Origin: an uncultured Acidobacteriota bacterium
Lineage (GTDB): Bacteria > Acidobacteriota > Thermoanaerobaculia > Multivoradales > JAGPDF01
Length of the DNA stretch: 64,000 bases
Reading direction: 5' to 3'
Assembly (NCBI GenBank): GCA_963803995.1
Contig: CAWDOT010000012.1
Span: forward strand, 140,822 to 204,821
Notes under the pieces: model-generated
The model's database searches: none
Told to the model about the DNA's origin: nothing
What the model saw: the letters and a program-made list of their open reading frames with translations, nothing else
Program-made: the position numbers and the translations under genes
In this document: piece by piece, positions 6,632 to 50,665 of the stretch
Layout of the letters: the number at the start of each line of letters is the position of its first letter
Position numbering within the stretch: the first letter of the stretch is position 1

Positions 6632-7243
6632 CTAGCTCGCGCGGCGGGTGTGGGCCGTGAAGTCGCGGATGTAGAAGGCCGCCCAGAGGATGAGCGGAAG
6701 CGCGAACTTGAAGGGGAGGTCGAGCAGGTGCTTGCCCAGGCCCCAGAAGTTCTGCGCGAAGGTGCCGTAGTGTGCCCGGCTCCAGTCGCCGAGCTGCGTG
6801 GCGTAGACGAACTTCACGAAGAAGAAGTAGAGCAACAGGTCGAAGAACACCGAAACCAGCGTCGCCCAGCCCAGATTCTCCCAGCGCCGCTTCGCCTCGA
6901 TGCCGGGCACCGCGAGGAAGAGCGCGAAGGTGAGAATCAGGTGGAAGTGCAGGTCGGTGACCCGGATCCGGTAGAGATAGCCCTTCTCGGCCAGGTAGTC
7001 GAGGCGGACGACCTGGGCGAAGTGGTCGAGGTAGTGCAGGCGCGTGACGTCCGGGCTCTCGGTGAAGTGGAGGAGCCGCTCGGTCGCGGCGGTCAGGAAG
7101 GGGTTGTAGATCGGCGTCAGCAGGAGCCAGACGATCGCCGCCGGCACGATGGCGAGCGCCAGGTTGCGCACGAAGCGGCGCATCCAGATCCCGTCGGCGG
7201 GCCGCGCCGCTCCGGGTCTTTCGCGCTCCTGCCGGTGGACCAT
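6632..7243 (-). CDS. Polytopic membrane protein immediately downstream of the exosortase (possible exosortase-associated partner)
   Basis: 203-aa ORF starting 19 nt after the exosortase stop on the same strand. Several hydrophobic helices (LALAIVPAAIVWLLLTPIY, HFHLILTFALFLAV, WATLVSVFFDLLLYFFFVKFVY, FKFALPLILWAAFYI). An alternative start is Met21 (nt 7183). The functional link is inferred from adjacency only. Confidence 0.6.
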   Translation of the reverse strand: MVHRQERERPGAARPADGIWMRRFVRNLALAIVPAAIVWLLLTPIYNPFLTAATERLLHFTESPDVTRLHYLDHFAQVVRLDYLAEKGYLYRIRVTDLHFHLILTFALFLAVPGIEAKRRWENLGWATLVSVFFDLLLYFFFVKFVYATQLGDWSRAHYGTFAQNFWGLGKHLLDLPFKFALPLILWAAFYIRDFTAHTRRAS

Positions 7244-7262
7244 GACGGCGGGCCCCCCGGCC

Positions 7263-7820
7263 TCAGGTCCGGGCTTCCGCGTCGGGCGGCGCCGGCGGCG
7301 CCAGGCGGTTGGCCCAGAGAATCCAGAGCAGCACGCCGGCCAGGATCACGATCGTCTGCCAGATCACGGTGTGCGAGCTGTCGAACAGCTTCGGGAAATA
7401 GACGCCGGTCAGGAAGAGCGCGACCACGCGCACCAGGTTGACGAGCTGGATCGCCACGAATCCGAACAGGAGCCCGGTCGCCCTCGACTTCCAGGGGGCC
7501 GGGAAGGCGAGCACCGCGGCGAAGTAGATGATCATCGCCTCGACGCCGTTGCATCCGTTCTTGATGTTGACCGCGAAGCGCGGGCTGCGGATGACCGTGC
7601 CCTGCATCTGGGTGCCCTGCCCGATCGCCGACAGAACGGCGCCCGAGGCGCGCGCGATCGCGCCGGTGAAGGGCTCGATGACGTGATCGTTGACCGGATT
7701 CCAGGCGATCAGGGTGAAGCCGCCGCCGAGCAGCACGACGAACACCACGAGGAAGCGCAGCTCCTGGCGGTAGCGGGCGAAGTACGAGGTTTCGGACGGA
7801 TTCGGCGGGGTCTCGGTCAT
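7263..7820 (-). CDS. Exosortase/archaeosortase-family transpeptidase, short form
   Basis: 185 aa, multi-TM. The family catalytic-type residues appear in the expected order: Cys in NGCNGVEAM, Arg in NLVRVV, His in SSHTVIW. Its size matches the shortest exosortase subfamilies (XrtH-like), but the subfamily cannot be assigned without HMMs. Confidence 0.8.
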   Translation of the reverse strand: MTETPPNPSETSYFARYRQELRFLVVFVVLLGGGFTLIAWNPVNDHVIEPFTGAIARASGAVLSAIGQGTQMQGTVIRSPRFAVNIKNGCNGVEAMIIYFAAVLAFPAPWKSRATGLLFGFVAIQLVNLVRVVALFLTGVYFPKLFDSSHTVIWQTIVILAGVLLWILWANRLAPPAPPDAEART

Positions 7821-7880
7821 GGCAGGTTCGCAGGCGAAGCCGAAAGCTTAGGTCAGCCGGCGTGCCGGCGACAAGGCGGC

Positions 7881-7909
7881 CGCCGCGGTTTGACATCGTG
7901 CGCGCCGGC
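7881..7909 (+). promoter_or_regulatory. Sigma-70-type promoter of the pyr operon
   Basis: TTGACA (7881-7886), a 17-nt spacer, then TACGAT (7904-7909). It is followed ~20 nt later by GGAG (7931-7934) and the TTG start at 7940. Confidence 0.5.
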
Positions 7910-7939
7910 TCGTACGATCTCGCCGCCTCTGGAGCCCCC

Positions 7940-8494
7940 TTGGAACTCGTCTCGAAGGCAACCATCCTCGACTCCGATCAGATCGGCCGCATCGTTCGCC
8001 GCATGGCGGGCGAGATCGCCGAGGCCCATCGCGGCACGGAAGGGCTGATGCTGATCGGCATCCGCACCCGCGGCGTGCCGCTCGCCGAGGGGCTCGCCCA
8101 GGAGATCGAACGCCTGGAGGGCAAGCGGCCGCCGATCGGCACCCTCGACATCACGCTCTACCGCGACGACCTCACCCTGGTGGCGCCCAAGCCGGTGGTG
8201 CGCGAGAGCCACTTCCCCGAGCCGATCCAGGACCGGGTGCTGGTTCTCTGCGACGACGTCCTCTACACCGGCCGCACCGTGCGGGCGGCGCTCGACGCGC
8301 TGCTCGACTTCGGCCGTCCGAAGGCGGTCCGGCTGGCGGTGCTGATCGACCGCGGCTGGCGCGAGCTGCCGATCCAGGCCGACTTCGTCGGCCGCCGGGT
8401 ACCGACCTCGTCGAGCGAGGTGATCAAGGTCTCCTGCGCCGAGACCGACGGCTCCGATCAGGTGCAGATCCTGGAGCGCCCGGCGGAGTCATGA
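7940..8494 (+). CDS. pyrR: Bifunctional pyrimidine operon regulator / uracil phosphoribosyltransferase PyrR
   Basis: Type I PRTase PRPP loop [19 protein letters not shown]. Further PyrR-like blocks are [24 protein letters not shown] and [18 protein letters not shown]. The start is placed at TTG 7940 (RBS GGAG) because the longer ORF start at 7862 lies upstream of the predicted promoter. The stop overlaps the pyrB ATG (ATGA). Confidence 0.9.
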
Positions 8495-37745: not shown

Positions 37746-39854
<2,109 letters not shown>

Positions 39855-40268: not shown

Positions 40269-41196
40269 CTAGTCCCGGTAGATCTCGTCGAGCGTCTCGC
40301 GCTGGCGGCGGAAGAGCAGGCCGACGAAGTGGGCGGAGAGGACGAGGGCGTAGGCGCCGAGGGCCCTGTTGATCAGGCCGCCGAGGAGCGGCAGGGGCGC
40401 GAGGATGGCGCCGAGCAGGATGCGGGTCGCGACCAGGAGGAGGACGATGCCGACCGTGGCCAGGCCCTGCGGGCCGGCCTTCGAGAGCAGCGCCTCGAGG
40501 TGCAGATCGACGCGGAAGCAGAGCCAGCCGCTGGCCTGTGCGCCGGTCGCGCCGAACGCGAAGACCCCGAGACAGAGCCCGATCCCGAGCGCGACGAGCA
40601 GGAGGAGGACGTCGCCGCGCGTCTGCGGTGCCCTCGATCAGCGCGAGCGGCGAGAAGTCGGTGACACGGGTCATCACCCAGGCGGGAAGCAGGGTGATGA
40701 CGGCGATGAAGAGGAACTGCACCATCTCCCCGAGGCGCTTGCCCGGCTCCGCGTAGTCGGGCCAGTCGGGCAGCTCGTCGTCGCCCTCGGCCGTGGTGCG
40801 GACGATCTCGAGCAGGAGCCCGGGCAGCAGGAGCGCGACGAGGGCCTGGACCAGGAGGCCCGCGAGGGCGTTGAGCAGCGTGGCGGCGGTGACCGTGAGC
40901 GCCCAGGCCGGCACGAGGTAGCGGCCGAGGCCGCGGAACGGGTAGAGCAGCGCGTCGGCGAAGCCGTAGGGGCGGTCGAGGCGGCGCTTCCGGACGTAGG
41001 CATTCGTCGCCGCGGGGGCTTCGGCGTCGAGCGGCAGCGCCCGCTCGCGGCAGTGGCGGCAGAGGAAGAGTCGATGGCCGGTTTCCACGCAGTCGGGGCA
41101 GAGCCGCCGCTTGCAGGAGGGACAACGGAACTCGGCAGGGCGGTCGGGGTGGGTCGTGCAGGGCGGCGGGACCAAGGACTGCAATCCTGACAGCAA
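40269..41196 (-). pseudogene. B-box-type zinc-finger membrane protein, one frameshift
   Basis: TTG start at 41196 (start uncertain). Cys/His cluster CTTHPDRPAEFRCPSCKRRLCPDCVETGHRLFLCRHC, followed by several TM helices. A shift at about 40625 precedes the last helices (...LLLLVALGIGLCLGVFAFG...LFRRQRETLDEIYRD-stop 40269-40271). Confidence 0.65.
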
Positions 41197-41277: not shown

Positions 41278-43612
41278 CTAGTTGCAGGGGAATCCGTCGC
41301 TGGTTCCGGTCGCGCCGATCGTCTGCGGATAGGAGCCGAGCGGATTGATGTAGTGCCGGACAGCGGAGCCGGCGGTGTCGCTGATCGTGACGTCGAAGCC
41401 CTGGTTGGTCAGGCCCGAGACGAACACCCAGTAGGCGTTGAACGGCGGCACGCAGGCGTCCACCATCTTCACGCCCATCTCGAAGTTCGCCGGGTCGAAG
41501 AACCACCAGAACGACGACTGGTCGGACGAGGCTCGCTGGCCGCCGAAGCTCATCACCTGAGCCGCGCCGGAGTCGGAGACCGTCGTCCAGTCGACCTCGA
41601 CCTGGAACCGGCCGCCCAGATGGCAGGCGGTGTCGGCGTCCGCGACGCAGGCCGTCGTGGCGTTCTCCGCCGTCGGCGCCAGCTTGCCGAGCAGCGAATC
41701 GCCGAGCGGGTCGATCGGCGTCGAGCCGAGAACCTTGCGGACCTGGGCCTCGGTCGGCTTCTCGTAGCGGGCGCCGGAGCCCGGCGTGCAGTCGAAGCCG
41801 GTGACGCCGTCGGTCGCGCCGATCGTCTGCGGGTAGTTGCCGAGCAGGTTCGGATAGGCGCGGGTCTGGCCCGTGAAGGTGTCGAGGATGGTGACCGCGT
41901 AGCCCTGGTTGGTCAGCCCCGAGACGAACACCCAGAAGCTGTCGTTGAAGGTGCAGGCGTCGACCATCTTGACGCCCATCTCGAAGTTGGCGTTGTCGAA
42001 GAAGTAGAAGAACGCCGACTGGTCCGACTCGGCGCGCGCGCCGTTGAAGCTCATCACCTGGCCGAGACCGGCAGACGACGCCGTCGTGTAGGCGACGTTG
42101 ACCTGGAAGCGGCCGCCGAGCAGGCAGGCATTCAGGTTCGACGGGCTGCAGGCGAGGTCGGGCCCGTTGATCACGAGGTCGCGCAGCTCGAGGCCGTCGC
42201 TGCGGCGCAGGAAGAGCGCGGGCACCGTGGTGTTGTCGGAGTCGCCGGCCATCGCGACCAAGTCCTCCGGACCGCCCGTCGAGGGAGTCTGCGCTGTTGT
42301 AGACGATCACCGCGGTGGCTCCGGCGGCGAGCGCGTTGTTGAACTTGTCGATGAACGGGCAGTCGTTGCGCTCGATCAGCACGATCTTTCCGGCGACGCT
42401 GTCGATCGCGGAGCAGGCGCGCGCCGGGTTGGCGATGACCACCTGGCCGGTCGGGATGACCGCGTTGTCGCCAAAGACCGGGGCGCCGAACGACGCGGCC
42501 TGCGCCTCCCACTCGCCGCCGCCCTCCGGGAAGAGCGCCTCGACCGAGGGCAGCTTCGCCCAGCCCGCCGACTCGGCCATCACATTGGCGCCGTCCCAGA
42601 CCACGTCCGGTCCGTTGACGATGGAGTCCTCGACGCTCCGCCTTGGTCATCTCGTCGAAGTGCTTGCCGGTCGAGTTGTCGAGAATGAACAGGTCGTAGA
42701 CGCCCGGGTCTTCGCCGCACGAACTCGCCGAAGTCCGGACTCGCCGAGTTGCGGTTGGTGAAGCTCGCGAACCCGATGCCGTGGCCGAGCTCGTGCAGGA
42801 GCACGTTGCTGAAGTTGATCTGGTCGCCGTTGTCGGAGTCCTGGCCGTAGTAGTAGCCGGCGCCGCCCAGGCAACCGTTGTCGTAGTCGATGTTCTCGTT
42901 GACGAAGACGATGATGTCGCCGGTCTCGAGGTCGCCGTCGCCGTCGAAGTCCCCTTCGGGCTTGACGTCCGGATCGCTCGACGACGTGAAGTCCGCCTCC
43001 GCGAGGTGCTCGCCGAGCATGGTGCCGGCCGTGACGTCCTTGCCGTCGAAAACGAAGCCGAAGTAGATGTAGGTCGGGCCGGCGGAGGCGAGCACCGCGC
43101 TCGTGGCGTCGCAGAAGCTGTCCCTGTGGACGGCCAGGACTTTGGTCGGGGTCGTCTTGCCGACCAGGCCGCCCCACTTGGCGAGCGCCTGCTCGAGCGC
43201 GAAGCGGCGCTGTTCGCCGAAGGTGGTCCCGGGGTTGCCCGGAGCCGCGGGCGCCGCGTCCGTCTCGTTGAAGCCGAAGCCCGGCTCGATCGAGGTACTC
43301 GACGGTGAAGTTCGACGTGCCGTCCGGGTAGCAGAGGTCGCGGAACAGCGGCATCGTGAGGTCGGTCTGGTGGAAGCCGAGCAGGTCGCTGATCGCCGGC
43401 CACATGAGCAGCGGCGAGGTGGCGAGGTCCCAGTGCGAGATCGAGGAGCCGCTGGTCGACGGGTTCGGCGCGTAGAGCTGGACGCGGCCGGCCTCGTCGG
43501 CGCCGGCGGGGATCGAGCCGAAGGTCACGACGGCGTCTGCGTAGGCGGTGCCGGCGCCGAGGGCGACGGCGCAGAGGGCGGCGAAAGAGGCGCGGAGGAG
43601 CGGGCGGTTCAT
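41278..43612 (-). pseudogene. Secreted zinc metalloprotease (HExxH) with a PA domain and two C-terminal four-Cys domains, four frameshifts
   Basis: ATG 43612 with a signal peptide (ASFAALCAVALGAGTAYA). Zincin motif VLLHELGHGIGF. PA domain GKIVLIERNDCPFIDKFNNALAAGATAVIVYNS. The two ~120-aa domains lie at 41788-42153 and 41281-41652. Shifts at about 43293, 42720, 42640 and 42265. Confidence 0.75.
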
Positions 43613-43614
43613 CG

Positions 43615-44014
43615 TCACTGCTCCTTGCTCTCGGACTTCGCCGGGGCCTTGGCCTCGGCGAGGAACTCGGCGAACTGACGCGGCGTCGTCGACGCAGCTC
43701 ACCGCCAGGGTGCCGTCCGGATTCCGCTTGGCGACGGCGACCTGGAGGGTCTGGTCGCCGACCTGGAGCTTGCGGACGCCGGCGGCCGCGGGCGCCTGCG
43801 CGCGGACCGTCGTCACGTCCTTGTCGAACTGGACGCGGAAGCTGGCGACCGCCTGCTTCTGGGCCGGGGTCAACTTCGCCTCGACCGCCGCGGCGTTGGC
43901 GGCGGCCTTCTCGCGCGCGCTCGGCGCGTCGTCGGCGAGGGCGGGCAGGGTCCACCCGGCCAGGGCCAGGGCGAGACCGAGGAATGTTGCGACTCTCGAA
44001 GCTCTGCTTCTCAC
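43615..44014 (-). pseudogene. Small secreted hypothetical protein, one frameshift
   Basis: GTG 44014 preceded by GAGGAGG. Signal peptide VATFLGLALALAGWTLPALA. A shift at about 43680 restores the tail QFAEFLAEAKAPAKSESKEQ-stop, which ends 2 nt before the metalloprotease ATG. Confidence 0.55.
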
Positions 44015-44142
44015 GCTGGAAACCTCCTCTGGGTAAGCTCGCGGGACCGGGCGGGGTCCCGCGCATGTGGCGTCTGGATCGTCGGACTCTAGCAGATCGT
44101 CCCGGACCGGGAGCCCCGCCCGGGGCCTGCGGTCCGAATGGC

Positions 44143-46182
44143 TCACTGGGTGCAGGGGAACCCGGTGTCGGCTCCCGTCGCGCCGATCGTCTGGGGGTAC
44201 TGGCCGAGCGGGTTGCGGTAGTGGCGGGTCAGGCCCGAGTGGGTGTCGGTGATCGCGACGTCGTAGGCCTGGTTGGTCAGGCCCGAGACGAAGACCCAGT
44301 AGGCATCGAACGGCGGCACGCAGGCGTCGACCATCTTGACGCCCATCTCGAAGTTGGCCGCGTCGAAGAACCACCAGAACGAGGACTGGTCGGACGCGGC
44401 GCGCTGGCCGTCGAAGCTCATGACCTGCGCGGCGCCGCCGTCGGAGAGGGTGGTCCAGTCGACCTCCACCTGGAAACGGCCGCCGAGCTGGCAGGCCGTG
44501 TCGGCGTCGGCGACGCAGACCGTGGGCTCGCCGCTCGGCGCGAGCAGCGTCACGACGAGCTGGTAGGCGCCCTCGCCGTCGAAGCGGTGAGCCAGGAAAT
44601 TCCAGGTCCCGGCCGCCGGAGCGTCGACCACGATCGACTCGATGGTGCTCGGATTCTGGGAGGCGGCGTCGAACTCGGTCACCGTGGGCTGCGCGCCGGC
44701 GCGCGCGTAGAGGTCGCCGTCGAGCGGTCCGAACAGGTCGCCGACCAGCGTCGCGCGCAGCTGCTGGGTGCCGGCCGGCACTTCGACCGCGAAGGTGTCG
44801 TCGTCGTCGCCGCCGGCGAGCGAATCGGTCGATCCGGAGGAGGTGGAGCCGCCCCCGATCGGCGCCGCTCCGCAGGCCGAGGTGCCGAGGTCGGCGCCGG
44901 CGGTCGCTTCGATCCAGGCGCGGTTGTCGGGGACGTCGGCGAAGAAGCTCTCGCCGGGCGGCTGGCAGTCGAGCGAAGTGGTTCCCGAGCCCACCCCCGC
45001 GAGGCGTTGCACGCCGCCCTGGGAGATCAGCAGGGAGGCGCCGCCGTCGCCCAGGCAGAGCCCCGACTCCGTGCCCGGCGCGCCGAGCGGGGCGGTGAGC
45101 TGGACACAGACCTGGTCGTCGTCCGGAACGATCGAGCAGGCCGCGGTGACCCCCTGACCGGCGCGCCGGATCCCGAACGAGAAGTCGAGGCCGCCGGTCG
45201 CGCCGTAGCCGACCAGCGTGGCGGACAGGCCGCTGCCGATCTCGTCGCCGGTCGCCAGCAGGGTCGGCGCCGCGCCGGGCACCGCTTCGGCGAGCGTGAT
45301 CAGCGCGAGGTCGTGGCCGAGGGCGAACTGGTAGTCGGAGTGGATCGTGATCCCCGCCAGTCCGAAGACGCCGTAGTGGGGGAGGAAAACCTGCTTGTCG
45401 TCGAGCGCGAGCAGCTCGTTGGCCTGAAGGCACTCCTCGCCGGTCAGATCCTGGCCGCAGATGCAGCTCGCCGCGGTGAGGAAGCTCGAGCAGCCGATCA
45501 GCGTGCCGCCGCAGCCGCCCTCGGGGGTCAGCAGCATGCCGGTGGCGGGGAAGTCGACCGAGGGCAGCGCGTTGACCAGGTGCTCGCGCGGCGCGGGCGC
45601 CGGCGCGGCGGCGGCCAGGGCGGCGGCCGGGAAGCGGGCCGCCAGCGGGTCGGCGGGCGCGGCGGCGAGCAGGGTCCGGACCTGATCGGGGGTCGGCGCG
45701 GGGGCAAGCGCTCCGCCGCCCGGCGTGCAGTCGAAGCCGCTGACGCCGTCGGTGGCGCCGATCGTCTGCGGATAGGTGCCGAGCGGATTCGAGTAGGTGC
45801 GGGTCTCGAGGGTGACGGTGTCCTGGATGGTCACCTCGAAAGCCTGGTTGGTGAGCCCCGAGACGAACACCCAGAAGCTGTCGTTGAAGGAGCAGGCGTC
45901 GACCATCTTGACGCCCATCTCGAAATTGGCGTTGTCGAAGAACCAGAAGAACGCCGACTGGTCCGACTCGGCGCGGGCGCCGTTGAAGCTCATCACGTTC
46001 GCCGCGCCGTTCGAACCGGCCGTGGTCCAGCCCACCTCGACGGCGAATCGGCCGGAGAGCAGACAGGCGGTGTCGGCGTCGGCGCCGCAGGCGGCGCGCG
46101 CGGGGACGGCGGCGAGCGGCAGCAGGAACGCCGCGGTGAGAAGCGCGGCCGCGCTGCCGGTCCCTCGGCTCTGGTGGCTCAT
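44143..46182 (-). CDS. Secreted trypsin-fold protein lacking catalytic His and Ser (pseudoprotease), with a PPC-like domain and flanking four-Cys domains
   Basis: Intact 679-aa ORF, ATG 46182 preceded by GGAGAGGAG, with a signal peptide. S1-fold blocks are present but altered: LTAASC where TAAHC is expected, HDLALITL (Asp kept), and CLGDGGASL where GDSGGP is expected. A pre-peptidase C-terminal-like module is DDDDTFAVEVPAGTQQLRATL...GAYQLVVTL. The four-Cys domains lie at 45727-46092 and 44146-44520. Confidence 0.8.
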   Translation of the reverse strand: MSHQSRGTGSAAALLTAAFLLPLAAVPARAACGADADTACLLSGRFAVEVGWTTAGSNGAANVMSFNGARAESDQSAFFWFFDNANFEMGVKMVDACSFNDSFWVFVSGLTNQAFEVTIQDTVTLETRTYSNPLGTYPQTIGATDGVSGFDCTPGGGALAPAPTPDQVRTLLAAAPADPLAARFPAAALAAAAPAPAPREHLVNALPSVDFPATGMLLTPEGGCGGTLIGCSSFLTAASCICGQDLTGEECLQANELLALDDKQVFLPHYGVFGLAGITIHSDYQFALGHDLALITLAEAVPGAAPTLLATGDEIGSGLSATLVGYGATGGLDFSFGIRRAGQGVTAACSIVPDDDQVCVQLTAPLGAPGTESGLCLGDGGASLLISQGGVQRLAGVGSGTTSLDCQPPGESFFADVPDNRAWIEATAGADLGTSACGAAPIGGGSTSSGSTDSLAGGDDDDTFAVEVPAGTQQLRATLVGDLFGPLDGDLYARAGAQPTVTEFDAASQNPSTIESIVVDAPAAGTWNFLAHRFDGEGAYQLVVTLLAPSGEPTVCVADADTACQLGGRFQVEVDWTTLSDGGAAQVMSFDGQRAASDQSSFWWFFDAANFEMGVKMVDACVPPFDAYWVFVSGLTNQAYDVAITDTHSGLTRHYRNPLGQYPQTIGATGADTGFPCTQ

Positions 46183-46208: not shown

Positions 46209-48365
46209 TCAGTCCATCAGGGGCAAATAGGCGGACTCGGCGTACTCGCGCACCATGCGGTCGCTCGAGAACTTCGGCGTGATGGTGGCGATCGCCTCCT
46301 TCATCATCGCCACCCAGCGGCGCGGGATCTGCTGCTCGTCGCGGTCGTAATAGGCGGGCACGATCTGCTCCTCGAGCAGGTGGTAGAGCGCCAGGGCGTC
46401 CTCGCGGTCGCGCGCGGCGTCGTCGCCCGCCACCTCCTTGCCGGCGATCACCCAGCCGTTCCTGCCGTCGTGGCCCTCGGGCCACCAGCCGTCGGCGATC
46501 GAGCAGTTGAGGGCGCCGTTCATCGCCGCCTTCATGCCCGACGTGCCGGAGGCCTCGAGGGGCCGCTGCGGCGTGTTGAGCCAGACGTCGACGCCCTGGA
46601 CCAGCATGCGCGCCACCCGCATGTCGTAGTCCTCGACGAAGAAGACGCGTCCCTTCAGCTTGTCGGACTGCGAGAGCTGGAAGAGGTGGGCGATCAGGCC
46701 CTGCCCCTCCTTGTCGGCGGGGTGGGCCTTGCCGGCGAGCAGGATCTGCACCGGCCGCGCCGGGTCGGAGACGAGCTGGCGCAGGCGGTGGAGGTCGGAG
46801 AAGAGCAGGCCGGCGCGCTTGTAGGTCGCGAAGCGACGCGCGAAGCCGATGGTCAGGACCTCCGGATCGAACATCTGCTCGACATTGCGCAGCTCGTCGG
46901 GCGACAGCCCGTGGCGCGCGAACTGGTCGCGCAGGCGCGACCGCAGGAAGCGCGCCAGCCGCCGCTTCTGCTCGAGGTGGGCTTCCCAGAGCTCCTCGTC
47001 GGGACCCTCGAGGATGGCGACCTTGCCGGTCTCGCTGGCGAGCACCTGGGACCACTTCTCGCCGAACCAGCGCGCGAAGAGCTCCTGCAGCTCGACGCCC
47101 AGCCAGGTCGCGGGGTGGACGCCGTTGGTGACCGCGCGCATGCGCTCGGCCTCGGGCAGCGTCTCGGGCAGCAGGTGGTTCCACATCCGGGCCGAGACCT
47201 CGGCGTTCAGCTTCGAAACGCCGTTGACCCGCGCGCTCGTGCGCAGCGCGAGCGCGGTCATGTTGAACGGCTGGTTGGGCTCGCCGTGGTCGTTGTTGCC
47301 GAGCGCCAGCCAGCGCTCGGGCGGCACGCCGAGCGCGAGCCAGAAGCGCTCGAAGTACTTGCGCACGAGCGGCGGATCGAAGACCTCGTTGCCCGCGGGC
47401 ACCGGCGTGTGGGTGGTGAAGACCGAGCGCCGCCGGATGCCGGGGAGAATCGACTCGAAGTCGCCCTCGCCGGCCTCCATCGCGCGGCGGATCCGTTCGA
47501 ACTGGAGGAAGGCCGAGTGCCCTTCGTTCATGTGCCAGACGCTGGGCTCGATGCCGAGCGCCTCGAGCGCCCGCACGCCGCCGACGCCGAGCACCACCTC
47601 CTGCGCCAGCCGCATCTCGCGGCCCGGCGTGTAGAGCATCGAGGTGATCGGGCGGTCGGCGGAGTCGTTCTGCGGCACGTCGGTGTCGAGCAGCACGAGC
47701 GGCACGCGGCCGACCTGGGCCACCCAGACCAGCACCCGGATCTCGCGGTCGGGGAAGGGCACCGTGACGTGGACGACGCGTCCGGTGGGCCCCGACGCCG
47801 GCCGCACCGGCAGGCGCGAGAAGTCGTAGTCGGGGTAGTTGTGCTGCTGGCGGCCGTCGGCGTCGATGGTCTGCCGGAAGTAGCCGTTGCGGTAGAGCAG
47901 GCCGACGCCGACCAGGGGCAGGCCGAGGTCGCTCGCGCTCTTCAGGTGGTCGCCGGCGAGGACGCCGAGGCCCCCGGAGTAGAGCCGGAGCGACTGGTGC
48001 AGGCCGAACTCCATGCAGAAGTAGGCGATGGTCCCCCTGGCCTCGGGAAAACGGCGGGCGAACCAGGTCTCCGCGGGTTCCGCCGTGTAGCGCTCGAACG
48101 CCTGCGTCACCTGGCGGTAAGCGGCGACGAAGCTGTCGTCCTCGAGCCGGGACTGCCAGTGGGTGCGGTCGAAGTTGATCAGGAGCTGCACCGGGTTGCG
48201 GTAGAGCGCCCAGGCGCGGCTGTCGATCTGATTGAAGAGGGCACGCGCCCGCGGGCTCCACGACCACCAGAGGTTGTAGGCGAGGTCGTAGAGCTTGGCC
48301 ACCTCGCGCGGCAGGTCGATGTCGGCGATGTGCAGGCGGGGGATCGGCTTCCAGTCTCGGGTCAT
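46209..48365 (-). CDS. glgP: Alpha-glucan (maltodextrin/glycogen) phosphorylase, short GT35 type
   Basis: Intact 718-aa ORF. N-terminal DUF3417-like LAYNLWWSWSPRARALF, GGLGVLAGDHLKSASDLG, AGKAHPADKEGQ, and the PLP-Lys region EASGTSGMKAAMNGALN. Confidence 0.9.
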   Translation of the reverse strand: MTRDWKPIPRLHIADIDLPREVAKLYDLAYNLWWSWSPRARALFNQIDSRAWALYRNPVQLLINFDRTHWQSRLEDDSFVAAYRQVTQAFERYTAEPAETWFARRFPEARGTIAYFCMEFGLHQSLRLYSGGLGVLAGDHLKSASDLGLPLVGVGLLYRNGYFRQTIDADGRQQHNYPDYDFSRLPVRPASGPTGRVVHVTVPFPDREIRVLVWVAQVGRVPLVLLDTDVPQNDSADRPITSMLYTPGREMRLAQEVVLGVGGVRALEALGIEPSVWHMNEGHSAFLQFERIRRAMEAGEGDFESILPGIRRRSVFTTHTPVPAGNEVFDPPLVRKYFERFWLALGVPPERWLALGNNDHGEPNQPFNMTALALRTSARVNGVSKLNAEVSARMWNHLLPETLPEAERMRAVTNGVHPATWLGVELQELFARWFGEKWSQVLASETGKVAILEGPDEELWEAHLEQKRRLARFLRSRLRDQFARHGLSPDELRNVEQMFDPEVLTIGFARRFATYKRAGLLFSDLHRLRQLVSDPARPVQILLAGKAHPADKEGQGLIAHLFQLSQSDKLKGRVFFVEDYDMRVARMLVQGVDVWLNTPQRPLEASGTSGMKAAMNGALNCSIADGWWPEGHDGRNGWVIAGKEVAGDDAARDREDALALYHLLEEQIVPAYYDRDEQQIPRRWVAMMKEAIATITPKFSSDRMVREYAESAYLPLMD

Positions 48366-48381
48366 CGAGTCTCTCTTCGAA

Positions 48382-50665
48382 TCAGTCCTCGGGCGGTCGC
48401 GCCCACTCGGGCTCGATCTCGGGGAACGGCAGGTCGAGGTCCGCCCAGGCCGGGAGGCGGCGCGCGCGGGGTCCGAGGTCGATCACTTCGCGCAGTCGCG
48501 CGCAGTGCTCGCGGAAGCGCATCTCGGCGTAGTCGCGCCCGGTACCCATGGTGACCAGGAAGGGCCAGTCCGAAGCCGCGGCGAGCAGGAGCTGGTTGAG
48601 GATCGTCCGCCGCCACTTGCGCGACCCGCCCCAGCGCACGGCGGCGAAGGCGCGCCGCTCGAGGTCGGCGAGCTCCCACCAGAACCACTCGGTCTCGGGG
48701 TTGACCCAGACCCGATGATCGCCGCCGGCGCCCCACGAGCCCTCGGCGAAGAAGGCGCGGCGCAGCGCCGGCTGGGCGTCGAGCTCGTGGGACGGCGTGG
48801 TCGCCTCCACCGCGGCGCCGGGCGCCGCCAGCTCGAGCACCCGCTCGAGCCAGACCGGACCCTCGAACCACCAGTGCCCGAACAGCTCCATGTCGAAGGG
48901 CGCGCAGACCACGCCACCGCCCATGCCGTCGAGGCCGGCCGCCAGCGCGAGGAAGTGCTCCGCCTGCTCGTGGGCGCGCGCGCGCGCGTCCTCCGGCCAG
49001 TAGACCAGCTTGTCCGCCATGTCGACCTGGCTCTGGGTCACGCGCCAGAGGCGCAGCCCGGAAGGCCAGTGGCGCTTGTGGAAGTCGAGGAAGGCGCCGT
49101 CGCCCGGATAGCCGCCCTGGCTCGACCAGACCTGCGCGGCGCTGCGCGCGTCGCGCAGGAACGCCGCGACGGCGCTCTGGCGGATCCAGTAGGGGCGGGG
49201 GTGCGGTCCGCCCGGCTCGACCACCTGGTCGGGCGGCAGCTGGGAGCCGTAGGGGAAGGCGGGGTCGCCGGCGCGCACCAGGTGGGCGTCGACCACCGTC
49301 CAGTTGAGCCCCTGTTCGGCGAGGAAGAGCTCGTTGCCGGGGCGGCTCTCCTCGGAGGCGCCGGTGACCGGATGGCGCCAGGGCCCCCCCGGCCGGTAGG
49401 CGCACTCCGGCATCCAGCAGCCGCGCGGATCGATGCCGAACAGCTCGCGGTGGCTCTCGCGCCCGGCGCGCAGCGCCAGCCGGATCAGCTTCGAGGTGTG
49501 CGCGAGCGGCAGGTAGACGTGAGTGCCGGCCGAGGTGGAGAGCTCGATCGTGTCGTTCTCGGCGAGCGCCGCGAGCGCCGTCACGAGGTTCTTGTCGAAG
49601 GACTCCCAGAGCCCCTTCAGCCGCTGGTACTCGCCGTGCCACCAGAGGGCGAGCGGGTGGCGCTTGCGCGTCTCCCAGGCGGCCTTGGCGCGCTCGGCGA
49701 GATAGCGGTCGACGACGCCGACCGTGCGCGGGTCGGCGAGCATGGCGCCGACCACCGGGGTCACCGAGACCGTCGCGACGTGGCGTCGCCCCTTCCCGCC
49801 CAGCCGCCGGAAGACGTCGAGGAGCGGTAGGTAGCAGTGCGCGATCGCCTCCGCCAGCCAGTCCTCGCCGTGGGGCCAGGTGCCGTGGCCGAGCACCCAG
49901 GGCAGGTGCATGTGGAGGACGAAAGCGATCCGGCGCGGCGAACCGTCGACGCGGCCGGAGGCGGCGGCCGTGAAGGCGGGCGGCTCGAGCGGCGGCCGCT
50001 GCTTGAACTGGGAAGAGGATCCGCTCGCGCTCGGCCGCGCTGAGCCGGACGCCGGCGGCGGCCGCGGGCCCGACCGGCGCCTCCGGTTCGCTCCCGCCCT
50101 CGGCCCCGCCGCCGACCTCGACTCCGCCCCCGACCCCGACCGGGACGCCCACTTCGCCCGGCTCGGGCTGGAACTCGACCGGCGTCGTCAGCACCGAGCG
50201 CGGCGGCGGCTCCGGCCTGGCCGCCTCGCCAGCGAGCTTAGGCAACTCGGCGAAAGGAGGGAGGCCAGCCCGGGACGGAGGCTGGTCTTCGGAAGGCAAA
50301 AGCTCCATAGAAGGGGTCGTGGCGGGCGAGGCGCCCTTGCGAGTCCGGCGCTTCGTGGGGGCGGCAGCGCCCTCCGGTTTGGCCTTGGCAGCCGCCTTGC
50401 CCTTTGCGCCCGACCCGGCCTTCGAATCCGGTTCGCCACGCCTGCCGGCGGCGGCCGCTGCGCTCGCCTTTACGCCCTTTCCTTGGGCTCCCGCTGCCTT
50501 CTTCGGGCTGGTGGCGGTCCGGCGGCGGCGCGACTCCGCGTTCGGAAGCCCCGAACTCGCCTCGGCAGCTTCAGCGACCTCGACCGCAGGCTTTTTTTCC
50601 TTAACTGGGCTTTTGCTGTTCTTTACTTTGGGCGTGCTTCCCTTCGCCTTCGGCCGGTCGCTCAT
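48382..50665 (-). pseudogene. GH57 1,4-alpha-glucan branching enzyme with a ~230-aa Lys/Ala/Pro-rich N-terminal extension, one frameshift
   Basis: GH57 core IAFVLHMHLPWVLGHGTWPHGEDWL, GCWMPECAY and FDMELFGHWWFEG (ORF 48382..49911). No start codon lies in frame just upstream of the core. The only ATG (50665, ATGA overlap with the DHH stop) opens a different frame that meets the core frame at about 50005. The extension is therefore plausible but unproven. Confidence 0.7.
50296..50640. repeat. Long-hairpin repeat element, copy D, inside the putative N-extension coding region
   Basis: Left end GCAAAAGCTCCATAGAAGGGG (50296-50316). Right end CCTTAACTGGGCTTTTGC (50599-50616) plus TGTTCTTTACTTTGGGCGT, similar to the copy C right flank TGTTTTCC...CCTTGGGCGT. 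Confidence 0.65.

Follow-up and report, generated by a model that had tools for sequence, protein, structure and literature searches.

A widespread, unclassified four-cysteine module of secreted Acidobacteriota proteins, tentatively read as a targeting or retention domain

Two neighboring genes of an uncultured Acidobacteriota bacterium encode secreted, protease-like proteins which between them carry the same domain of about 120 residues four times. What this domain is, and what it does for its carriers, is the question raised by the locus. An earlier note on the analyzed stretch of DNA (64,000 nucleotides, hereafter the window) placed the four copies on the minus strand, and their positions were confirmed exactly: when all six frames of the window were searched with the family HMM, only these four copies were recovered, each scoring 127–137 bits, far beyond chance. 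The features of the locus are as follows.

44143–46182, minus strand: gene of protein A, 679 aa, intact (ORF and translation)
46093–46182, minus strand: putative signal peptide of protein A, MSHQSRGTGSAAALLTAAFLLPLAAVPARA, assigned by eye from the translation; ACGADADTAC comes next
45727–46092, minus strand: module copy a1, subtype a, 137 bits against the family HMM; N-terminus of mature protein A
45643–45726, minus strand: linker following a1, TPGGGALAPAPTPDQVRTLLAAAPADPL, from the translation; homologous to 41653–41799 and to the linkers of the orthologues L002, L003, and P0033
44911–45549, minus strand: trypsin-fold domain (Pfam PF00089 Trypsin, aa 212–424, 4.2e-10)
44596–44799, minus strand: PPC (bacterial pre-peptidase C-terminal) domain (Pfam PF04151, aa 462–529, E 1.1e-9)
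44146–44520, minus strand: module copy b1, subtype b, 131 bits against the family HMM; ends in GFPCTQ, then the stop codon
41278–43612, minus strand: metalloprotease gene, three-frame read-through
42769–42795, minus strand: HExxH zinc-binding motif HELGHGIGF, read from the translation
42184–42451, minus strand: PA (protease-associated) domain (PF02225, E 1.3e-17, in the reconstructed protein); the frameshift near 42277 lies inside
41788–42153, minus strand: module copy a2, subtype a, in the metalloprotease gene, 127 bits against the family HMM
41653–41799, minus strand: end of a2 (GFDC) and conserved a–b linker, TPGSGARYEKPTEAQVRKVLGSTPIDPLGDSLLGKLAPTAENATT, read from the translation
41281–41652, minus strand: module copy b2, subtype b, 127 bits against the family HMM; ends in GFPCN, then the stop codon

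The module is an all-beta domain of about 122 residues with four cysteines. The four window copies are 63–82% identical in amino acid sequence, and 68 out of 125 columns of their alignment are invariant, including all four cysteines, as had been claimed. The consensus and the subtype-specific motifs described earlier, the order of an a copy followed by a b copy, and, behind the a copy, the homologous linker (P-x-x-QVR...DPL, at 45643–45726 and 41653–41799) are all present in the translations. Copies of the same subtype are the most similar (a1/a2, 75% of amino acids and 81% of nucleotides; b1/b2, 81.5 and 84%, respectively), compared with 63–69% of amino acids and 71–74% of nucleotides for the a versus b pairs.

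The nucleotide identity within subtypes had been estimated at roughly 85% and attributed to recent duplication or gene conversion. The measured values are slightly lower, and neither event is indicated by them, as the paralogues in the window (81 and 84%) resemble each other no more than they resemble their orthologues from other species (82% between a2 and the a copy of L002, 83% between b2 and its b copy). Across genomes, a copies cluster with a copies, and b copies with b copies; thus, the split between the subtypes predates these species.

Protein A, an identical 679-aa copy of which is present in the representative library as P0028, consists of the signal peptide, a1, the conserved linker, an inactive trypsin fold, the PPC domain, and b1. 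Its earlier description as a pseudoprotease holds, since the catalytic His and Ser are both absent (TAASC in place of TAAHC at 45460–45477, and GDGGAS in place of GDSGG at 45031–45051), while the Asp is kept (GHDLALITL); both the trypsin fold and the PPC domain were found by Pfam between the two module copies, where they had been expected. In the metalloprotease, the order is signal peptide, SSISHWD region, HELGHGIGF, PA domain, a2, linker, b2. Its match to the NCBIfam model NF038122 (metallo_LGF) is weak, 19.7 bits against a cut-off of 80, and its PA region resembles, also below the cut-off, M36 peptidases that elsewhere bear lineage-specific sorting signals (myxosortase-, T9SS-, and rhombosortase-dependent M36 in NCBIfam).

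In this assembly the reading frame of the metalloprotease gene is broken four times, near 43286, 42719, 42633, and 42277, which the earlier note did not mention. According to tblastn and DNA alignment to intact orthologues (L002, about 770 aa; L003, 4102–6369, 755 aa; P0033, 757 aa), these are three one-base insertions and one two-base deletion.

The domain family is unclassified in all libraries searched. The isolated window module had no match at E<=1 in Pfam-A (2025 copy) or NCBIfam 20.0, forty diverse members showed no consistent match to Pfam or NCBIfam (scattered single ones only, at E>=0.009), and in 67 full-length members the module was covered by no Pfam family. A profile search of PDB sequences found no relative (best E 0.95). 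Two AF2 models of copy b1 (pLDDT 90.5 and 96.3) have identical secondary structure, and Foldseek comparison of both with the PDB gave nothing at E<=1e-3, the best query-normalized TM-scores being 0.37 and 0.28; a search of BFVD with a module model likewise gave no match at E<=1e-3. The suggestion that no named family covers the domain therefore stands at the level of both sequence and structure. That the copies are independently folding units is also borne out, as natural proteins consisting of a signal peptide and a single module exist (P0002, P0006, P0008, P0009), and the isolated domain is modeled at pLDDT 96.3.

The family is large, with 9,586 representatives of 50%-identity clusters at E<=1e-3, of which 7,860 reach E<=1e-10. 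Each of the 72 genomic loci belongs to an Acidobacteriota MAG, in most cases one of Thermoanaerobaculia, and all named sources are Acidobacteriota (Thermoanaerobaculia, Holophagales), a picture drawn from a pattern scan geared to close relatives and from few named matches, most members being metagenome proteins. Many paralogues and tandem gene arrays of module proteins are observed.

Among the listed, highest-scoring representatives, two copies are the commonest arrangement (119 out of 172 proteins), the last copy ends at most five residues from the C-terminus in 144 out of 172, and in about 15% the pair is at the N-terminus, followed by 500–1200 further residues. The chain ends exactly one residue past the last cysteine in 98 out of 146 cases, and an N-terminal hydrophobic segment is present in 102 out of 135. 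Partner domains are diverse: fn3, BNR/Sortilin, S8, PA, M64, M12, trypsin-like, lactonase, LamG, PKD, Calx-beta, and beta-helix. The module behaves as a shuffled cassette, frequently an a–linker–b pair, joined to a wide range of unrelated secreted enzymes and repeat proteins, in most cases at the extreme C-terminus and in others at the N-terminus, and it is exported behind putative Sec-type signal peptides.

All four cysteines are retained in 251 out of 273 family segments, and the rare losses are paired (the first two cysteines retained and the last two lost in two segments, the reverse in one), which weakly suggests disulfides C2–C10 and C67–C123. Near-invariant polar residues are R15, N56, E58, K62, T82, D92, and N103 (numbering of copy b1); N56, E58, K62, D92, and N103 are conserved at 92–100%, unusually strict for a beta module of 120 residues. 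These residues could serve the structure, as a network of buried salt bridges, and even a catalytic role is conceivable.

Judging from architecture alone, we tentatively favor, with a probability of about 0.45, a disulfide-stabilized, non-catalytic targeting or retention domain that holds exoenzymes on a surface. Two disulfides would probably staple the module, and the conserved polar cluster (R15, N56, E58, K62, T82, D92, N103) would bind one common ligand and so keep the exoenzymes in place. The surface would most likely be an envelope or matrix polymer made by the producing cell itself, with a polymeric substrate as the second possibility, and the tandem pairing of copies would provide avidity. 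In the window, one cassette equips the HExxH/PA-domain metalloprotease, and in the neighboring protein A two modules flank the catalytically dead trypsin fold and the PPC domain.

By analogy, the behavior of the module most resembles that of non-covalent cell-surface anchoring modules, namely, SLH, LysM, choline-binding, and GW repeats, which are also tandem, lineage-specific, and found at either terminus of many unrelated secreted enzymes. These modules bind Gram-positive wall polymers, whereas the host here is a diderm acidobacterium, and they have no sequence or fold relation to the module; more generally, no similarity to known binding-module folds was found. Carbohydrate-binding modules (CBMs) are likewise small non-catalytic beta domains rich in aromatic residues, frequently duplicated and attached to secreted hydrolases. 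Classical glycoside hydrolases, however, are scarce among the partners of the module, which are mostly peptidases, propellers, and fn3/PKD repeats, and this speaks against a carbohydrate-binding module of the conventional type directed at an environmental polysaccharide; no CBM model of Pfam matched the module, and no CBM was among the significant Foldseek matches.

Other C-terminal elements differ in kind. PEP-CTERM and IPTL-CTERM signals also mark the C-terminus of proteins secreted by soil and sediment bacteria, but consist of a short motif, a transmembrane helix, and a basic tail, whereas the module is a folded domain of 120 residues with no hydrophobic tail. A C-terminal hydrophobic helix was seen in only one out of 146 representatives, where it is separate from the modules: P0148 combines two N-terminal modules with a PEP/IPTL-CTERM-like anchor of its own, and thus the module there is cargo rather than the sorting signal. 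A possible link to the exosortase at 7263–7820, raised earlier, finds no support: this exosortase is XrtH (TIGR04177, 124 bits), 34 kb away, and neither of the two module proteins, whose last residues are GFPCTQ and GFPCN, has a transmembrane anchor at its C-terminus.

The strict C-terminal end, a cysteine plus one residue, would be equally expected of a secretion or sorting domain. The module could be the recognition and attachment domain of an undiscovered, Acidobacteriota-specific outer-membrane export or surface-display pathway with dedicated machinery, its internal and N-terminal copies serving as secondary binding units; it would then be, with a fold of which no relative has been solved, the functional counterpart of the T9SS C-terminal domain (Por_Secre_tail; TIGR04183/PF18962). 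Both are folded, beta-rich, lineage-restricted domains at the extreme C-terminus of a diverse secreted or surface proteome, with many paralogues per genome, and the tandem gene arrays, as well as the below-cut-off resemblance of the PA region to M36 peptidases bearing sorting signals of other phyla, point the same way. Unlike the T9SS domain, the module is about 120 residues long with four conserved cysteines, usually tandem, and also N-terminal or alone. We consider this reading unlikely, since tandem pairs predominate among the listed representatives, N-terminal pairs precede long stretches of further sequence, protein A has one module directly behind its signal peptide, module-only proteins exist, P0148 joins modules to a separate membrane anchor, and no candidate machinery was identified. 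The TIGR04183, PF18962, and TIGR04131 models do not match the module, nor does the T9SS domain fold, and none of SprA/Sov, PorV, PorU, or GldKLMN is among the scanned genes of the 64-kb window. To our knowledge, Acidobacteriota have no T9SS. The module as a T9SS domain proper, a single and exclusively C-terminal copy, was rejected given the two copies in 119 out of 172 listed proteins, the N-terminal pairs, and the module-only proteins.

An intramolecular chaperone, stabilizer, or pro-domain cleaved after export is improbable. A role of this type has been proposed for PPC domains of secreted proteases, and the PPC domain resembles the module in being a C-terminal accessory beta domain of such proteases and co-occurs with it in protein A, where b1 follows it; the module is also C-terminal in many peptidases, and its four cysteines fit an oxidizing compartment. 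The two nevertheless differ in length and cysteine pattern and occupy separate regions, as the PF04151 match in protein A is confined to aa 462–529, with no signal over either module. Moreover, many partners are not proteases (fn3, PKD, beta-helix, beta-propellers, Calx-beta), N-terminal and stand-alone forms exist, and very high conservation across unrelated partners is not expected of a chaperone tailored to one catalytic domain.

Equally improbable is a divergent member of a described domain family missed by the libraries and by Foldseek, as the Pfam-A, NCBIfam, and PDB profile searches were negative, and so was Foldseek with two high-confidence models (best query-normalized TM-score 0.37). 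Least credible is a small catalytic domain with N-x-E-x3-K, D92, and N103 as the active site, or a hydrolase inhibitor: the 92–100% conservation of these residues and the stand-alone secreted forms would fit it, but no similarity to an enzyme or inhibitor family or fold was found, the module is attached to proteins with catalytic domains of their own, and duplication in tandem is a habit of binding modules more than of such domains.

In soils and sediments, Acidobacteriota rank with the most abundant bacteria, and their secreted hydrolases drive polymer turnover. Across nearly ten thousand clusters at 50% identity, the module is attached to peptidases, propellers, beta-helix proteins, and adhesin-like repeats, and a family name would improve the annotation of thousands of "hypothetical" proteins. 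Its high-confidence model with no PDB match makes it a good candidate for experimental structure determination. Being widespread, and having neither a family name nor a structural relative in the searched libraries, the module thus offers a concrete handle on the targeting and retention of exoenzymes in diderm Acidobacteriota, and its ligand or partner would tell whether this lineage has a surface-display or secretion logic of its own.

The earlier note had proposed an unrecognized, independently folding four-cysteine module that occurs as a/b pairs in two neighboring secreted protease-like proteins, and this core reading stands. All four segments of about 122 amino acids are present exactly where it placed them, and the translations contain the subtype motifs, the order of an a copy followed by a b copy, and, behind both a copies, a homologous linker (P-x-x-QVR…DPL). 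The window has a G+C content of about 72%, and both genes, those of protein A and of the metalloprotease, lie on the minus strand, with the following features.

44143-46182, minus strand: gene of protein A, one intact ORF, 679 aa
45727-46092, minus strand: module copy a1 of protein A, subtype a
44911-45549, minus strand: Trypsin (Pfam), aa 212-424 of protein A, between the linker and b1
aa 462-529 of protein A, minus strand: PPC (Pfam), between the linker and b1
44146-44520, minus strand: module copy b1 of protein A, subtype b
41788-42153, minus strand: module copy a2 of the metalloprotease, subtype a
41281-41652, minus strand: module copy b2 of the metalloprotease, subtype b

Copies a1 and a2 are 75% identical in amino acids and 81% in nucleotides, and b1 and b2, 81.5% and 84%, respectively, so that an earlier estimate of about 85% nucleotide identity within subtypes was somewhat high; between a and b copies the values are 63-69% and 71-74%. 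Across the four copies 68 alignment columns are invariant, all four cysteines included, and a six-frame scan of the 64 kb with the family HMM yields these four copies only, with 127-137 bits each.

The N-terminus of protein A resembles a signal peptide that ends in ARA and is followed by ACGADADTAC. Its trypsin fold retains the catalytic Asp, while the catalytic His and Ser are gone (TAASC replaces TAAHC, and GDGGAS replaces GDSGG), so the fold is predicted to be catalytically dead. Judging by these motifs, which agree with the initial call, protein A is a secreted pseudoprotease with two modules placed on either side of the trypsin fold.

As for the metalloprotease (41278-43612), the a2 and b2 copies are indeed there, but the gene is not a single ORF in the window, as four frame changes are needed to read through it. 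Intact orthologs are found in two loci of related Acidobacteriota MAGs, L002 (about 770 aa) and L003 (4102-6369, 755 aa), and in the metagenome protein P0033 (757 aa), all with the same layout, namely, a signal peptide, an SS[IV]SHW[DN] region, HExxH, a PA domain, module a, the linker, and module b. DNA alignment with L002 and L003 reveals single-base insertions near 43286, 42633, and 42277, and a two-base deletion near 42719. Compared with intact orthologs of related MAGs, frame changes affect three out of five consecutive genes: the S9 peptidase (38278-39851) and the zinc-finger/membrane protein (40272-41166) are also split, each over two frames, and the phosphorylase (46209-48365) is intact. 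The simplest explanation is that these changes probably are sequence errors in the assembly; possibly, they reflect real gene decay. The SS[IV]SH[WF][DN] motif region (window 43427-43447), which has no Pfam match in the window, recurs in several peptidases that bear the module (P0015, P0018, P0031, P0033, and L002 at 7024-8370); one metagenome neighbor gene matches PF27052 (Lysyl_endopep_N).

No relative of the module was identified in the libraries searched, in line with the earlier view that no named family is known for it. An isolated copy has no match at E ≤ 1 in Pfam-A and NCBIfam; 40 diverse family members produce in the same databases only scattered, mutually inconsistent matches (E ≥ 0.009); among 67 full-length members the module lies outside every Pfam match; and the family profile retrieves no relative among PDB sequences (best E 0.95). 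The AlphaFold2 model is all-beta with nine strands and confident, with pLDDT 90.5 when built from 17 sequences, and pLDDT 96.3 and pTM 0.89 when built from 50, the secondary structure being the same in both. Foldseek searches with both models against PDB found nothing at E ≤ 1e-3 (best query-normalized TM-scores 0.37 and 0.28), nor did a search against BFVD at this threshold, and a literature search that included the module sequence motifs found nothing relevant. The module is a new family within a known kind, the accessory modules of secreted proteins, and its confidently predicted fold has no solved relative.

The family is very large and, so far, restricted to Acidobacteriota. At E ≤ 1e-3 an exhaustive profile search retrieved 9,586 cluster representatives (clusters at 50% identity), among them 7,860 at E ≤ 1e-10 and 2,178 at E ≤ 1e-30. 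With a single genome taken for each species, a pattern scan produced 72 loci, all from Acidobacteriota MAGs, mostly Thermoanaerobaculia (including Candidatus Multivoraceae) with some Holophagales, and the few named database matches are to Acidobacteriota, Holophagales, or merely “bacterium.” Domain architecture was considered in 172 proteins, the best 146 representatives and 26 first matches. Two copies are carried by 119 of these proteins, one by 48, and three or four by five; the last copy lies at most five residues from the C-terminus in 144, and the chain stops exactly one residue past the last Cys in 98 out of 146. A hydrophobic N-terminal segment is seen in 102 of the 135 proteins starting with Met. 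The partner domains are highly diverse: repeat or binding-type domains (fn3, PKD, Calx-beta, LamG), peptidase-related ones (S8, PA, M64, M12, trypsin-like), and propellers and helices (BNR/Sortilin-like, lactonase, PD40, right-handed beta-helix).

All four cysteines are kept in 251 out of 273 segments. The rare losses come as CC-- (twice) and --CC (once), which weakly suggests disulfides C2-C10 and C67-C123. Near-invariant positions also include R15, F16, F52, N56, E58, K62, W75, F77, T82, D92, N103, and G106 (numbering of b1).

The high identity of same-subtype copies had been attributed to recent duplication or gene conversion. This explanation is rejected, as the paralogs in the window are no closer to each other than to orthologous copies of other species (nucleotide identity of a2 and b2 to the copies in L002 is 82% and 83%, respectively, and of b1 to the b copy in L001, 83%), and the subtypes predate the species. 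Across genomes a copies group with a, and b copies with b; family-wide, the copy most closely related to a given one occupies the same position in another protein in 128 cases, is an other-position copy in 56, and is its sister in 40. Taken together, these sequence comparisons argue that the tandem a/b pair is old and do not call for recent gene conversion. Copies are nevertheless shuffled to some extent. Two stand-alone proteins consisting of a signal peptide and one module, P0001 and P0004, look like mosaics with an a-type N-terminal half and a b-type C-terminal half, the latter nearly identical to b1 in P0001 and similar in P0004, which suggests recombination between subtypes. In P0036, the window's a-linker-b cassette is attached to a different catalytic domain, which is reprolysin-like, and in P0030 it follows another N-terminal region. 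Tandem right-handed beta-helix paralogs, each with the module as its last domain, are seen with a period of about 1.46 kb in L058, L061, and L063, and four tandem genes that likewise end in the module and have no Pfam match, in L050 (5242-10434).

Synteny of the slot that lies between the genes of the S9 peptidase and the alpha-glucan phosphorylase extends to at least 13 related Thermoanaerobaculia MAG loci (L001-L003, L013-L018, L021, L022, L026, L035). The module-bearing gene in it differs with the species and encodes an HExxH/PA protease, another metalloprotease with HEIGH, or an S1-like protease whose module copy is distant; it looks like a variable exoenzyme slot. The flanking genes themselves are syntenic housekeeping genes and point to no functional link with the module. 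The glycogen-metabolism pair directly upstream of protein A (46209-49911) comprises the phosphorylase, which matches TIGR02094 with 821 bits, and an ORF resembling a branching enzyme, with NCBIfam matches below the cut-off (best NF041566, 371 bits); a long overlapping ORF (48362-50665) is probably spurious or frameshift-related. No shared neighbors were found around two small family members (L073, L074), and one of the two, although it seems to stand alone, may have been split off from the end of a larger gene.

The module is exported, autonomous, and cysteine-stabilized, has no homology to known families, and is fused promiscuously. We suggest that it is a non-catalytic targeting module, which would bind a common ligand and so localize many different exoenzymes. 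Its behavior fits best that of SLH, LysM, and CBMs, non-covalent surface-anchoring or binding modules, with which it shares occurrence in tandem, at both ends of proteins, and on its own, as well as restriction to a lineage and a very diverse cargo. The strongest competing reading makes it a genuine domain for sorting or secretion, an analog of the T9SS CTD, which would account for the strict C-terminal end of the module and its cargo spectrum, but not for tandem and N-terminal copies (in about 15%, the pair is N-terminal with 250-1200 more residues behind it) nor for module-only proteins, where a signal peptide and a single module (P0002, P0006, P0008, P0009) or two modules (P0027) make up the whole chain. 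It also fits poorly with P0148 (335 aa), in which two N-terminal modules stand alongside a separate hydrophobic tail that is PEP/IPTL-CTERM-like and ends in basic residues, the sole such C-terminal anchor among the 146 representatives. For a targeting module, the scarcity of glycoside hydrolases as partners tentatively favors retention of exoenzymes on the envelope or matrix of the producing cell over binding of environmental polysaccharide. The exosortase at 7263-7820, considered earlier as a possible partner, is XrtH (TIGR04177, 124 bits), next to an ORF (6632-7243) that scores 26.8 bits with the XrtH-associated membrane protein model NF041730, below its 35-bit cut-off; it is rejected, since it is 34 kb away and the module proteins of the window, ending in GFPCTQ (protein A) and GFPCN (the metalloprotease), have no IPTL/PEP-CTERM-type hydrophobic tail that could serve as a membrane-anchor signal.

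The module is of moderate to high interest for protein-family curators and acidobacterial cell biology, and would be of high interest only if it defined a new sorting pathway.
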